Source of the DNA: Escherichia coli
GTDB taxonomy: Bacteria > Pseudomonadota > Gammaproteobacteria > Enterobacterales > Enterobacteriaceae
DNA length: 64,000 bases
NCBI RefSeq assembly: GCF_002854065.1
Contig: NZ_CP024147.1
Strand: one strand, 5' to 3'
Positions 26,119-35,070 of the stretch are shown here, piece by piece. Positions within the stretch are counted from its first letter, which is position 1; every line of letters starts with the position of its first letter. The translations under genes were made by a program, and so were the position numbers. The notes beneath the pieces are model-generated. The model ran no database searches. It was not told where the DNA came from and saw nothing but the letters and a program-made list of their open reading frames with translations.

Positions 26119-27147
26119 TTATGCAGCAACGCCTTCCGGTATCAGCGAAGCAATTTGCTTACGCCATTGCGCTTGCTCCTGTTCGCCTTCTGTACGTTGA
26201 CCATAAAGTTGCGCTATCTGCGTACCATCATGGGCAAACAATTCCAGACTGGTTACGTAGCCATCGCTGGTCGGTTTACGGGTAACCCAGGCTTCAGCAA
26301 TGCTCTCTTCTAATAGATGAAGAGTAAACGTCGGGTTGAAAATATTCAGCCAACCTTTCATTGGCACCACTTTTTCTACCACACCAGTGAAAATCTGTAC
26401 GCAGCCACGGTTGCCAACAAACACCATGATTTCATTACCATCCTGCTGTGCAGATTCAAGAATTTGCGCCAACGCACTGTTGGATACTTTGCAGGCCAAA
26501 TCGTCTGCCACCAGATTGAACGCCTGTTGGCGCGTCAGATTGTGGCGCTTTAGCAACGTAAAAAACTGATGAACGTCGGTCATCGCCCGCCACTCTTGCT
26601 CGACCACAGTGGCATCGGCTCGCGTTTGAACAACTGGCGCATCAACGGCTTTTAACTCAAGCGGCATATTCTCATCGGTGATAAACCGTGCCAGAAGCTC
26701 ACTCCATGCCGCCATATCGGTATTGTCGGTGGCATAAACTTTTAGTAATGCATCACCCTGATGATCAAAGAACTGAATACTCTGGCGTTCGCCACGAGCC
26801 GTGTTTTCTTTGATGTGGAAAACACTGGCCCATTGATTGAGAAACAGACGTAAATCCAGCGCGCGCGGATTGAGGATCAATCCGGCATGTCCGTTCAAAT
26901 GCTGGTTTGTGAACGTACCAACTTGCTCATGGACTGCATATTCATTACGACAAATACATTTGGTTTCGCCAACACTTTCGAGCGCCGCCAGAATTTCACG
27001 GATATCGCCGTGCATCCGCCACGCATCGTGCGTGACGCGTGCAAATGCCAGTTCTGCTTCTCTAATATTCATTAACCCTGCGATGTCACGCGCGTACTTT
27101 CCGGGATTTTGTTCTTTTAACTCAAGCCAGCGTGTGTAGTGGTTCAT
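26119..27147 (-). CDS. chuS: Heme oxygenase/heme-degrading protein ChuS
   Basis: 342 aa, recognised ChuS sequence. Confidence 0.88.
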   Translation of the reverse strand: MNHYTRWLELKEQNPGKYARDIAGLMNIREAELAFARVTHDAWRMHGDIREILAALESVGETKCICRNEYAVHEQVGTFTNQHLNGHAGLILNPRALDLRLFLNQWASVFHIKENTARGERQSIQFFDHQGDALLKVYATDNTDMAAWSELLARFITDENMPLELKAVDAPVVQTRADATVVEQEWRAMTDVHQFFTLLKRHNLTRQQAFNLVADDLACKVSNSALAQILESAQQDGNEIMVFVGNRGCVQIFTGVVEKVVPMKGWLNIFNPTFTLHLLEESIAEAWVTRKPTSDGYVTSLELFAHDGTQIAQLYGQRTEGEQEQAQWRKQIASLIPEGVAA

Positions 27148-27195
27148 TGTCTCTCTTCCTTCCAGATAAATGCCCCGAAATATCGGGGCAGATGA

Positions 27196-29178
27196 TTACC
27201 ATTGATAACTCACGAAAATTTTTCCGTTACGACCATCCTGTGGGATGCCTTGCGGCGACCAGTACTCTTTGTCGAAAGCGTTACCCAACACCAAAGTAGT
27301 GGTCATACCTTTGAGCGCCTGTTGTCCTTGATAACTGACGTAGAAATCATTCACGCCATAGCCTGGTTGTTTGCTGTAACTGCTGCTGATATGTGTTGAG
27401 CGATCGGCAAACGTACCAACCCACCCAACAGAGAAGCCACTGTGAGCGATCGGAATATTCAGAGTGCTGGTAACAGTATCCGGGTTAATGCTGGAGATGT
27501 ATTCGCCGGTATCGGTGTCTTTGCCGCGGGTACGGTTATAGGCCACATCAAGGCTAAACAGATCAGTGGTATATTTCGTCATCACATCCCAGCCCCAGAT
27601 TTTGGCGTTCGGGACGTTATACGACATAGTCGTCGCCGCCGCGAAATCGACGGTCGTGGAGATGTAATCCTTCGCTTTGGTATCAAAGTAGCTGGCTTTA
27701 AATTCCAGAGCATCATTGGACAACATCAGGTCATCAAAACGCAGCCCAAAACCGTACTCCTGAGTTTCGTTAGTTTCCGGACGTAAGTTCGGGTTTGGCA
27801 CCCAATAGTTGGTATAGAAGCGACCAATCGAGAAGTGCTTAGAATCGTTATACATTTCGCCCATCGTCGGGGCGCGGAATGCCTGGGCATATGAGCCAAA
27901 TAACATCAGCCAGTTAGTCGGATTGATAGTCATCCCCGCACGAGATGACCATTTGTCGGCATCAACATCTTTGTAACCGTCACTGCTACCGCGATAACTG
28001 TCATAGCGGGTTCCGCCAAGCAGGGTAATCGGCAGATCGCGTAAGGTGATCTCATCCTGTAGCCAGCCGGAGCTAAAATCGATTTTTGCTTGCGGGAAGC
28101 CCGTCGTCGCGCCGCCCGGATGTTGTTCCTGACGATAATACTCACCGCCATATGTCAGTAAGTGAGAAGCGAAACTGTCGGCAAAGAGAGTGGAACGGTT
28201 CTCCAGCCTGGCTCCTTTTGTTATCTGTTCACGATACTCGCCGGAACTCCCCGTGTTTTGCGCATTAATACGGACTTCCGACCAATAAATTTTTGCATCT
28301 GCATTTAACCAGTCGTTGCCCTGCGGGGCGAGTTTATAAGAAAGCTGCGCATCGCGTTGAATTGTTGAACGATCAACCATCGGGTTGCTGCTTTCAGAAG
28401 CCTCAACGGTCTGCGGATTTTTTGGTTCACGCGCGTCGTTGTTGTAGTAACGCACTAAACCGCTCAGAGACTGGGCTGAATCAATTTGCCAGGTCCCTTT
28501 CGCCAGCATGTTATTAATGGACTCGTCATTCGGCGCGGTTTCACCATTGCTTTGCCGTAAATCACCCCGATCGCGACTGGACCAGGCCACAATACCATCC
28601 AGATTTTCAGTTCGCCCAAACGCGCTCGCGCCTAATCCCAGGCTATGGTCCCCCGTACCGCCAGTACCAAAGACACGAAAACCACTGCTTTGTCCTTCCT
28701 GCAATAAATCTTTTGCATCGACCGTATCGTAGGAGATCACTCCACCCAGCGCGCCACTGCCATACAGTAATGCTGAAGGTCCGCGAACAATCTCAACACG
28801 CTTGATCAGCGCCGGATCGAGAAAAGTGCCATTCAGGTGTCCGGTATCCGTTCCCTGGCGAACACCATCGATAAGAACCAGCACGCCGCGATGATCATAG
28901 CCACGCATATTTACATCCTGACCGTTGGTTCGTCCGGTACCATCCAGAGTAATTCCAGGAACATGACGCAGCAGATCGGTGGCTGAAGTAGCCGTTTGAT
29001 TTTCAGGAGCGGAAGTGTCGATGACGCTGACCATCATAGGCGTTTCGAAGGAACTACGGGCATTCCCCGTTGCCGTAACGGTCATGGTTTCAGTAGCAAA
29101 AGCAAACGTTGGCAAGGTGGCAGAAACAGCCAAGGCCAACAAACTCAAACGCAACGAGGTAAATTGCGGACGTGACAT
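27196..29178 (-). CDS. chuA: TonB-dependent outer-membrane heme receptor ChuA
   Basis: 660 aa, signal peptide, TonB box, C-terminal …SYQW. Confidence 0.9.
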   Translation of the reverse strand: MSRPQFTSLRLSLLALAVSATLPTFAFATETMTVTATGNARSSFETPMMVSVIDTSAPENQTATSATDLLRHVPGITLDGTGRTNGQDVNMRGYDHRGVLVLIDGVRQGTDTGHLNGTFLDPALIKRVEIVRGPSALLYGSGALGGVISYDTVDAKDLLQEGQSSGFRVFGTGGTGDHSLGLGASAFGRTENLDGIVAWSSRDRGDLRQSNGETAPNDESINNMLAKGTWQIDSAQSLSGLVRYYNNDAREPKNPQTVEASESSNPMVDRSTIQRDAQLSYKLAPQGNDWLNADAKIYWSEVRINAQNTGSSGEYREQITKGARLENRSTLFADSFASHLLTYGGEYYRQEQHPGGATTGFPQAKIDFSSGWLQDEITLRDLPITLLGGTRYDSYRGSSDGYKDVDADKWSSRAGMTINPTNWLMLFGSYAQAFRAPTMGEMYNDSKHFSIGRFYTNYWVPNPNLRPETNETQEYGFGLRFDDLMLSNDALEFKASYFDTKAKDYISTTVDFAAATTMSYNVPNAKIWGWDVMTKYTTDLFSLDVAYNRTRGKDTDTGEYISSINPDTVTSTLNIPIAHSGFSVGWVGTFADRSTHISSSYSKQPGYGVNDFYVSYQGQQALKGMTTTLVLGNAFDKEYWSPQGIPQDGRNGKIFVSYQW

Positions 29179-33262: not shown

Positions 33263-33310
33263 TACCCCGGCGCGGCATGTCCGCGCCGTAATGTCGTAAC
33301 GGAGTTTTGC

Positions 33311-34303
33311 GTGCACAAGGATTCATTTTCATCCGCCAGGGTCTTTATGGGGCTATCACTATTATTGCTTGCCCTAGTGCTGTTCGGTGCTAGTCAGGGA
33401 GCGTTAAAGATCAGTTTTGATGCCCTTTTTGATGAGGAATACCGCGATATCTGGCTCAATATTCGTCTACCACGGGTTTTGCTGGCGGTGCTGGTAGGTG
33501 CAGCGTTGGCAACCGCAGGGGTAATTATGCAGGGGCTTTTTCGCAACCCAATGGCTGACCCAGGATTACTTGGCGTCAGTAGCGGTTCTGCATTAATGGT
33601 TGGCGTTGCTATTGTGCTGCCCTTCTCCTTCCCAGTGGTGCTGGTGCTCTATGAGCAAATGATGTTTGCCATTGCCGGAAGTTTAGTGGTCTGCACCATC
33701 ATTTTTCTCATCACGCAGCGCCATCGCGATGGCAGCATGATGCAATTATTACTCGCCGGTATCGCCATCAATGCCCTGTGCGGCGCAGCGATCGGCATCC
33801 TGAGCTATATCGGCGATGAGCAGCAGCTACGACAACTCACATTGTGGATGATGGGCAATCTTGGACAGGCGCAATGGCCGACGTTATTGGTTGCCAGTTC
33901 ATTCATCCTTCCGGCCATTATCGCAACAACTAGTCTCGCCGGAACGCTGAATTTACTGCAGCTCGGTGATGAAGAAGCTCATTACCTCGGCGTGAACGTT
34001 AAGCGTAAACGCCAGCAATTACTGTTAGTGAGCTCACTGCTCGTTGGTGCTGCCGTATCGGTAAGCGGCATTATCGGCTTTATTGGCCTGGTGATCCCGC
34101 ATCTGATTCGCATGACTACCGGAGCAAATCACCGCTGGCTAATCCCTTGTTCCGCCCTCGCCGGAGCCTGTTTATTGCTGATGGCAGACACGCTTGCCCG
34201 CACGCTGGTACAGCCAGCAGAAATGCCCGTAGGATTATTAACCAGCCTGCTTGGTGGCCCTTATTTTATGTGGTTGATTCTGCGAAATCGGAGGATCACA
34301 TGA
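33311..34303 (+). CDS. chuU: Heme ABC transporter permease ChuU (GTG start at 33311 or later Met)
   Basis: FecCD-type permease. Confidence 0.8.
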
Positions 34304-35070
34304 TCAGCGCCCAGAATCTGGTTTATAGCCTTCAGGGGCGGCGTCTGACTGATAATGTCTCGCTGACTTTTCCCGGTGGGGAAATTGTTGCAATTCTCGG
34401 CCCTAATGGTGCGGGAAAATCTACGCTGCTTCGCCAGTTAACCGGCTATCTTCAACCTGATAGCGGCGAATGTCGGTTGTTTAATAAGCCATTAAATGAA
34501 TGGTCGATTACTGAACTGGCGAAACACCGGGCCGTGATGCGTCAAAATAGCCACATGGCGTTTCCATTCAGCGTACAAGAAGTTATCCAGATGGGGCAGC
34601 ATCCGCATCGTACTGGTAATCAGGATAATGAAACAGCACAAATAATGGCGTTATGTGACTGTCAGGCGTTAGCAAACCGCGACTATCGGCAATTATCCGG
34701 TGGTGAACAACAGCGCGTGCAACTAGCGCGCCTGCTGGTGCAACTCTGGGAACCTACTCCCTCACCGAAATGGTTATTTCTTGATGAACCAACTTCGGCG
34801 CTGGATATTCACCATCAGCAGCACTTGTTTCGTTTATTACGCCAGTTAGTTCACGAGCGGCAGTTCAATGTCTGCTGCATATTGCACGATCTAAATCTTG
34901 CCGCGCGTTATGCAGACCGTGTTGTATTAATGCAAAAAGGAAAGGTTATCGCAAATGGTAAACCACAGGACGTATTGACACAGCAGGCGCTGACAATGCT
35001 CTACGGCGCGGATATTACCGTACTTAAAGATCCTGCCAACCATTCACCACTGATCGTCCTCGATCATTAA
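34300..35070 (+). CDS. hmuV: Heme ABC transporter ATPase ChuV/HmuV
   Basis: Walker [22 protein letters not shown] overlap with chuU; RBS GGAGGA. Confidence 0.85.

Follow-up and report, generated by a model that had tools for sequence, protein, structure and literature searches.

The long leader of chuA in the Escherichia coli chu haem-uptake island as a probable relic of hemP followed by a conserved HPRE-like motif

The shu locus of Shigella dysenteriae and the chu locus of Escherichia coli O157:H7 and uropathogenic E. coli are well-described haem-uptake systems. Both have the same eight genes in the same order and orientation at a site between dctR and yhiD, with the same two Fur boxes, a 291-nt leader upstream of the receptor gene and a FourU RNA thermometer. 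The E. coli DNA analysed here (64,000 nt of contig NZ_CP024147.1; the window) carries this locus, and nothing of substance distinguishes it from the known loci; its flanking dctR is truncated at the 5' end by IS1. The locus, its control by Fur and the chuA thermometer are published, textbook matter, and chuA is a routine phylotyping marker. The point added here to a preliminary description made from the sequence alone is the proposal that the long chuA leader derives from a decayed hemP gene, after which comes a conserved HPRE-like motif.

Two other systems are relevant to this leader. The Yersinia-type hemPRSTUV operon is found at the aroH-selO site in Citrobacter, Enterobacter, Kluyvera, Buttiauxella and other genera. 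It shares with chu a Fur-controlled promoter approximately 300 nt upstream of the receptor gene, a GCCAGCC...CAGCCAGC motif and a U-rich hairpin region that occludes the Shine-Dalgarno (SD) sequence, and its HemR and HemS show ~80-88% identity to ChuA and ChuS. This operon has an intact hemP, with the transport genes downstream in one transcription unit, whereas in Escherichia chu hemP appears decayed and chuTWXYUV is divergent. The second system is the HmuP/ChuP-HPRE pair of Ensifer meliloti (shmR) and Chromobacterium violaceum (chuR), in which the gene for a haem TonB receptor is preceded by a small gene of the HemP family. Here the likeness to chu is a GCCAGCC-type direct repeat in the receptor leader, 26-60 nt before the start codon (PMC9131926). 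In Escherichia chu, unlike the HmuP/ChuP systems, the hemP in cis is apparently dead and the only HemP-family gene is ydiE, located elsewhere.

The whole reading proposed for the window, which is probably correct, is that of a known chu island with Fur-covered divergent promoters, a thermometer, a leader that is long because it contains a dead gene (hemP), and then a constrained motif. In other Enterobacterales the same Fur-controlled promoter drives hemP (52-66 aa), with the receptor gene approximately 75 nt later. In the Escherichia chu lineage hemP would have lost its reading frame, its interior drifting almost neutrally while the promoter, start position, end and length persist. The length itself is well documented: the published chuA start site of strain Sakai (4,391,862; 291-nt 5' untranslated region [5'UTR]; Sy and Tree, PMC9002310) corresponds to window position 29469, giving the long leader that the preliminary description had proposed. 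The intergenic region is identical to that of Sakai at 677 of 682 positions with no indels, and therefore the published leader numbering applies directly here.

The evidence for a relic comes from a comparison set of 80 chuA-homologue loci (one genome per species). Six Escherichia sequences were compared (the window, O157, E. albertii, Escherichia sp. MOD1 and two other E. coli), and no recognizable HemP was found in any of them. HemR-type receptors from 74 loci of other genera share 57-88% identity with ChuA. The interval corresponding to the chuA leader contains an intact hemP gene, in the region -262..-73, in every non-Escherichia locus that includes upstream DNA (74 of 74); in five Buttiauxella loci it is displaced by a 130-220-bp insertion. 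The products of these genes end in ...LLGxEGRVIIEHDGQHYLLRQTxAGKLILTK and belong to Pfam PF10636 (E-value: about 1e-17); the loci are hemPRSTUV operons of the Yersinia type. When the Escherichia leader is compared with the hemP-bearing regions using nhmmer, two blocks align: the promoter, the Fur box and the first codons ATG-GAT-AAC (E-value: 8e-8), and the stretch from AAATAA, the last lysine codon and stop of hemP, to the chuA start (E-value: 7e-20). The span from the relic ATG to the TAA is 187 nt, compared with 180-189 nt in intact hemP. Between these blocks, a profile of the Escherichia interiors gives a colinear match to the closest hemP, that of Kluyvera (E-value: 0.003; TLPDKEGVLL--RNCQKYQ versus ALLGEEGWVLIEHNGQHYL). 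The leader thus occupies the position expected of hemP, after a Fur-controlled promoter and about 75 nt before a haem receptor gene.

The pattern of change within Escherichia is consistent with a dead gene. A 13-nt insertion is among the indels common to the four aligned leaders (the window, E. albertii and two other E. coli). Further 1-nt indels separate them from one another, such that the open reading frames (ORFs) end at 45, 40 and 34 aa, and one has GTG instead of ATG. The Jukes-Cantor (JC) distance of the relic interior between the window and other Escherichia lineages is 0.28-0.30, compared with a chuA synonymous divergence (dS) of 0.34-0.51. In the same comparisons, the 77 nt adjoining chuA have a JC distance of only 0.03-0.07. 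One Escherichia lineage carries a 127-bp ERIC-like insertion within the relic. The identification of the leader as a relic of hemP, and not as a member of the HemP family, is well supported by these comparisons. A literature search found nothing on the origin of the chuA leader. The S. dysenteriae locus is stated to have no hemP homologue (PMC6158557), and the published study of the chuA leader mentions neither hemP nor an upstream ORF (PMC9002310).

A separate observation concerns Escherichia sp. MOD1-EC7003 (fetched locus 3350-4000). In this strain, chuA-chuS lies between yhiD and dctR without chuTWXYUV, and ERIC-like repeats occur at the site of the deletion as well as within the hemP relic.

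The HPRE-like motif lies between the old hemP stop and the thermometer, within the strongly constrained ~75 nt. The pattern GCCAGCC-N(2-30)-CAGCCAGC has a single occurrence in the window (0.00 expected); 64 of the 80 fetched chuA-homologue loci likewise have it once, in the corresponding position, and most of the others are one base off. Among 51 motif variants both arms are invariant and the spacer, which could form a small stem between the two repeats, is 3-15 nt. A 42-nt element containing the motif is at least 99% identical in 2,200 of 2,235 chu-positive E. coli genomes. No second copy was found in E. coli genomes by BLAST, the sensitivity of which is too low for half-sites. In Proteus mirabilis the motif also follows hemP, before a receptor that is 33% identical to ChuA; the motif travels with hemP and not with the receptor clade. 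(The fetched P. mirabilis locus, at 3380-3720, reads Fur box, hemP, CGCAAGCCACC-N9-AGGCAGCCAGC, TonB receptor.)

The described HPRE of C. violaceum chuR is CCCGCAAGCCAGCCGACAGCCAGCCAGCG, located 26 nt before the ATG (PMC9131926). Set against that sequence, the chuA motif has the same features: a GCCAGCC-type direct repeat in the leader of a haem TonB receptor gene, downstream of hemP or hmuP. It is plausible, from its sequence and placement, that the motif is a functional HPRE. If this identification is right, the statement that HPREs are absent from gammaproteobacteria (PMC9241770) needs revision.

The relic would also account for published features of the leader. Kouse 2013 wrote that the role of the remaining chuA 5'UTR "remains under investigation", and Sy and Tree 2022 inferred an unidentified repressive element and an unidentified factor (PMC9002310). 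The proposed hemP relic and HPRE-like motif address this oddity flagged by both groups. In the latter work, truncation T4 begins at +217, and the segment +177..+217 is 9-fold repressive and Rho-linked (PMC9002310). The T4 point coincides exactly with the old hemP stop codon, and so the repressive segment would be the tail of the dead gene, and the part retained in T4 would be the HPRE-like motif and the thermometer. The architecture suggested for the leader is therefore a dead hemP, an HPRE-like motif and a FourU thermometer, in that order, with ydiE as a candidate partner.

Two other explanations of the leader as a whole were considered. It could be a purpose-built RNA platform (thermometer, small RNA [sRNA] sites and Rho loading) with a coincidental resemblance to hemP, as might be supposed from published work that treats it purely as a multi-regulator 5'UTR (PMC3660397, PMC9002310) and from the absence of a HemP signal at the protein level. 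This is very improbable given that the promoter, Fur box, first three codons, AAATAA and downstream 75 nt are colinear with hemP loci at equal spacing. Moreover, an interior that evolves at the synonymous rate is not that of a conserved RNA, and in one lineage it has tolerated the ERIC-like insertion. Alternatively, the product of the 45-codon ORF could be a small protein with a function, as a divergent form of HemP or as a new peptide. Three of four Escherichia lineages do retain an ATG where hemP ancestrally started, and each of the four has an ORF of 34-50 codons. However, the frames and C-termini vary among lineages owing to the 1-nt indels, two E. coli lineages differ at 7 of the first 18 residues, the divergence is neutral-like, no Pfam match is obtained and no SD sequence is visible upstream. 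A functional product is accordingly hard to credit. Translation of the ORF could nevertheless matter in cis, for instance by keeping Rho off the transcript as far as +168, shortly ahead of the element at +177..+217.

For the motif, the competing explanation is that the GCCAGCC...CAGCCAGC element has been kept in Escherichia for reasons other than HemP, either as a CyaR/Hfq site or as a hairpin with tandem C.A mismatches. The best predicted CyaR duplex covers the 3' half of the motif and the U run, the region for which a direct activating interaction has been shown (PMC9002310). The motif also folds into a regular stem in which pairs of G-C base pairs alternate with tandem C.A/A.C mismatches. 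The sole compensatory change is from G-C to A-U in the Budviciaceae, and in E. albertii one A.C has become G.U. Set against this, the motif follows hemP in Proteus, Budviciaceae and C. violaceum (PMC9131926), even where the receptor is 33% identical, and hence its distribution tracks hemP. Retention for a purpose unrelated to HemP is rather unlikely on this balance, and a CyaR role and a HemP role are not mutually exclusive.

Several results weigh against the relic and HPRE assignments. The 45- and 53-aa leader ORFs have no Pfam match and lack the C-terminal H..Y..R.T..GKLILTK core of PF10636, and a custom profile of 65 HemP sequences gives E-values above 1 on all six leader frames. The nucleotide similarity of the interior to hemP depends on the single match at an E-value of 0.003. 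With the protein-level signal unrecognizable, the main support for the relic is the homology of its flanks, together with colinearity and equal length. The HPRE label comes from resemblance to one quoted sequence (PMC9131926), and the reported absence of HPREs from gammaproteobacteria, taken from a secondary source (PMC9241770), runs counter to it. As the arms are invariant and there is one compensatory pair, structure is inseparable from sequence recognition. More distant HemP contexts were also sought: a word-index search gave close relatives only, and a full HMMER search gave 5,109 family representatives. Three distant hemP contigs were checked; these were short or had tonB downstream instead of a receptor gene, had no motif and were uninformative.

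If the motif is in use, the HemP-family protein available in E. coli is YdiE. A nucleotide search of E. coli with Citrobacter hemP gave no match, and a tblastn search of records filed as plasmids, some being in fact chromosomes, found an E. coli gene annotated as hemP adjoining aroH. Its K-12 counterpart is ydiE (b1705, "PF10636 family protein"), between aroH and selO (fetched locus 3614-3805). The gene order is aroH-hemP-hemR-hemS-hemT-hemU-hemV-selO in ~57 fetched loci and aroH-ydiE-selO in K-12; ydiE is therefore the hemP that remained after loss of hemRSTUV. Klebsiella has the same orphan hemP between aroH and selO (fetched locus 3510-3689), in both E. coli and Klebsiella the orphan has its own Fur box, and Salmonella also has an orphan hemP (PMC3212961).

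YdiE shares 50-68% identity with the HemP proteins encoded next to aroH in other genera and, like them, is a Fur-regulated HemP-family protein encoded at the ancestral hemP position (PMC10164565, PMC3212961); unlike the HemP of hem operons, it has no adjacent receptor gene, and it lies outside the window. It is present in 5,422 of 5,426 E. coli genomes and belongs to the core Fur regulon, with function unknown (PMC10164565). Its structure is deposited as that of an uncharacterised protein (PDB 4YNX). Redundancy with YdiE would have let the island's own hemP decay. It is tentatively proposed that the HPRE-like motif is still used and, the hemP in cis being dead, is served in trans by YdiE; this has somewhat less than even chances, and the link of YdiE to the chuA leader is speculative. 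The literature searched contained no paper linking ydiE, HemP or HPRE with chuA. The reading ties the leader to a conserved gene of unknown function. If true, chuA would be the first target for YdiE, YdiE would be the "additional element/factor" that published chuA 5'UTR work found missing, and the HPRE would be extended to gammaproteobacteria.

The last 30 nt of the leader are predicted to be the FourU thermometer, which would hide the ribosome-binding site below 37 C. A shuA-type thermometer had been suggested in the preliminary description, with structure prediction as a check. The region directly upstream of the start codon matches Rfam RF02597 (shuA_thermo) at 60.1 bits (gathering score: 58), and its minimum-free-energy hairpin (UUUUCCU/GGAGAAU) pairs the U run with the SD sequence. 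Temperature-dependent translation has been shown for the chuA 5'UTR of uropathogenic E. coli UTI89, and the FourU region is reported to be completely conserved among aligned shuA/chuA sequences, including those of enterohaemorrhagic E. coli (PMC3660397). The Rfam model gave zero matches in other genera, which is uninformative as its gathering score is close to the maximum score. Folding of the whole leader is unremarkable (z = -1.7), and no RfaH ops element was found in the leader at up to 1 mismatch. The direct activating CyaR site is described as "about 15 nt upstream of the SD" (PMC9002310). Duplex prediction over the whole leader gave long, meaningless duplexes no better than shuffles, and 25-nt windows were used instead; the best of these duplexes (+249..+268, -18.1 kcal/mol) consists of the 3' arm of the motif and the U run, in agreement with the published location.

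Transcription is predicted to start from two divergent sigma-70 promoters, each with a Fur box, such that chuA-chuS and chuTWXYUV would be transcribed only at low iron. The two Fur boxes stand where they were first described and each matches the consensus at 17 of 19 positions. They are the only sites in the 64 kb with up to 3 mismatches (0.01 expected; 0 of 100 shuffles reached this count), and no further box of at least 13/19 was found in the spacers before chuS or chuU. Each is a 19-bp box lying over a core promoter or start site, as at Fur-repressed promoters. Box 1 begins 290 nt from the chuA ATG, in line with the original estimate of about 290 nt. The positions of the chuA -35 and -10 hexamers are consistent with the published +1, and with -10 at 29478-29483 and +1 at 29469, box 1 covers both. 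In shuT, a 42-nt 5'UTR and a functional Fur site at +1..+19 have been described (PMC5458455); the same 5'UTR length before the chuT ATG at 29861 would place +1 at 29819, the first base of box 2. Fur binding and iron-dependent repression have been demonstrated for shuA/shuT and chuA (PMC5458455, PMC9002310). The chuT promoter region is conserved among Escherichia, and nearly all genera examined have a Fur box ~300 nt upstream of the receptor gene. Coordinates of all features are given in Table 1.

Table 1. Features of the chu region in the window, ordered by position
Feature	Position	Strand	Description	Basis
dctR	25541-26058	+	Left flank of island; lacks first 13 nt and promoter	
chu island	26060-35113		DNA not in K-12, dctR stop to yhiD stop	Base-by-base K-12 comparison
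chuS	26119-27147	-	Haem oxygenase/haem-degrading protein	RefSeq annotation of 100%-identical record
chuA	27196-29178	-	TonB-dependent haem/haemoglobin receptor	RefSeq annotation of 100%-identical record
FourU RNA thermometer	29176-29207	-	U run paired with SD GGAG (29186-29189)	Rfam RF02597
chuA 5' leader	29179-29469	-	291 nt; +1 = 29469	
HPRE-like motif	29208-29241	-	GCCAGCCACCCCGG-TATTAA-CCCAGGCAGCCAGC; +229..+262 of leader; 3' half overlaps CyaR site	
Probable hemP relic	29253-29439	-	Putative ancestral ATG 29437-29439; putative ancestral end AAATAA 29253-29258	
Present 45-codon leader ORF	29302-29439	-	+31..+168	
Fur box 1	29468-29486		GATAATGAGAATTATTATC; 17/19; overlaps -10 and +1 of chuA promoter	
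chuA (probably ancestral hemP) promoter	29478-29506	-	-35 TTGATC 29501-29506, 17-nt spacer, -10 AATAAT 29478-29483	Consensus scan
Spacer between divergent promoters	29546-29720		Fast-diverging; no conserved ORF	
chuT promoter and 42-nt 5'UTR	29784-29860	+	-35 TTGAAT 29784-29789, -10 TATAAC 29807-29812, probable +1 29819	
Fur box 2	29819-29837		GATAATCATAATCATTCTC; 17/19; +1..+19 of chuT; overlapping 15/19 site at 29813-29831	
chuT-chuW-chuX-chuY-chuU-chuV	29861-35070	+	Periplasmic binding protein, anaerobic haem degradation, ABC permease/ATPase	
chuT	29861-30775	+		RefSeq annotation of 100%-identical record
chuW	30795-32132	+		RefSeq annotation of 100%-identical record
chuX	32145-32639	+		RefSeq annotation of 100%-identical record
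chuY	32639-33262	+		RefSeq annotation of 100%-identical record
chuU	33311-34303	+		RefSeq annotation of 100%-identical record
chuV	34300-35070	+		RefSeq annotation of 100%-identical record
11-bp hairpin	35076-35102		Right end of island; terminator-like on yhiD strand	
yhiD	35122-35769	-	Right flank of island	

The spacer between the two promoters has a JC distance of ~0.5 among Escherichia lineages, at least as fast as chuA dS. Two ORFs in this region were judged spurious: a 99-aa ORF (29454-29753, minus strand) has no Pfam match and lies largely in the non-conserved spacer, as does a 26-aa ORF (29547-29627, plus strand), the ATG of which is lost in other Escherichia lineages. Locus tags jump by one number between chuA and chuT in Sakai (ECs_4380 to ECs_4382), and O157 493/89 likewise skips a tag there (RS01530 to RS01520); a formerly annotated intergenic ORF appears to have been withdrawn. 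In the genera that have 80-88% identical HemR/HemS, identity is only ~32% between ChuT and HemT, 61% between ChuU and HemU and 49% between ChuV and HemV, and the low ChuT/HemT identity suggests that chuTWXYUV is of different ancestry from hemTUV. With chuAS close to hemRS of Kluyvera/Citrobacter and chuT, chuU and chuV only 32-61% identical to their hem counterparts, the spacer may be the place where two modules with separate ancestries were joined.

Gene content and site identify the region as the established chu (shu) island for haem uptake in E. coli, located within the acid fitness island: it has the eight genes with divergent chuS-chuA and lies between dctR (yhiF) and yhiD. Gene coordinates were taken from the RefSeq annotation of the strain 100416 record, which is 100% identical over window positions 26000-35200, alongside an ORF map. 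This annotation and the junctions with K-12 agree with the first account of chuS-chuA and chuTWXYU-hmuV (chuV) between dctR and yhiD, and the stop codons of chuS and chuV form the exact ends of the span given there. K-12 and the window diverge one base past the dctR stop (26060) and merge again at ~35114, just before the yhiD stop, the insertion of ~9.05 kb standing in place of ~35 bp of the K-12 dctR-yhiD spacer. The arrangement had been called one known from pathogenic lineages, with comparison to O157 and uropathogenic chu loci as a check; the O157:H7 and O55:H7 loci have the same eight genes and annotation with 99.1% identity. Among 5,426 complete E. coli genomes, 2,234 carry 80% or more of the locus, a frequency that fits the suggested use in strain typing.

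At the left flank, an IS1 copy (24773-25540) abuts nucleotide 14 of dctR, the start codon and promoter of which are gone. The window lacks slp and yhiS, the genes found before dctR in K-12 and in the otherwise identical strain 100416. At the right end, the G+C-rich hairpin between chuV and yhiD is island-borne and not in K-12.

Positions 1-24700 of the window are not colinear with strain 100416. This part contains an arsenic-resistance cluster with two ArsA ATPases (6147-7925, plus strand; 11813-13618, minus strand), ArsB (7973-9262), an ArsC-like gene (9275-9700) and an ArsP permease (15803-16954). Other genes in this part encode an 870-aa SMC/AAA ATPase (1862-4474) and a tyrosine recombinase (17413-18756), and ORFs of 346 aa and 600 aa there gave no Pfam match. 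The window also has Rfam matches above the gathering score to the sRNAs AgrB (antisense to dinQ; 24144-24228), ES205 (38877-38948) and GadY (44727-44840), all of which are expected in this chromosomal neighbourhood.

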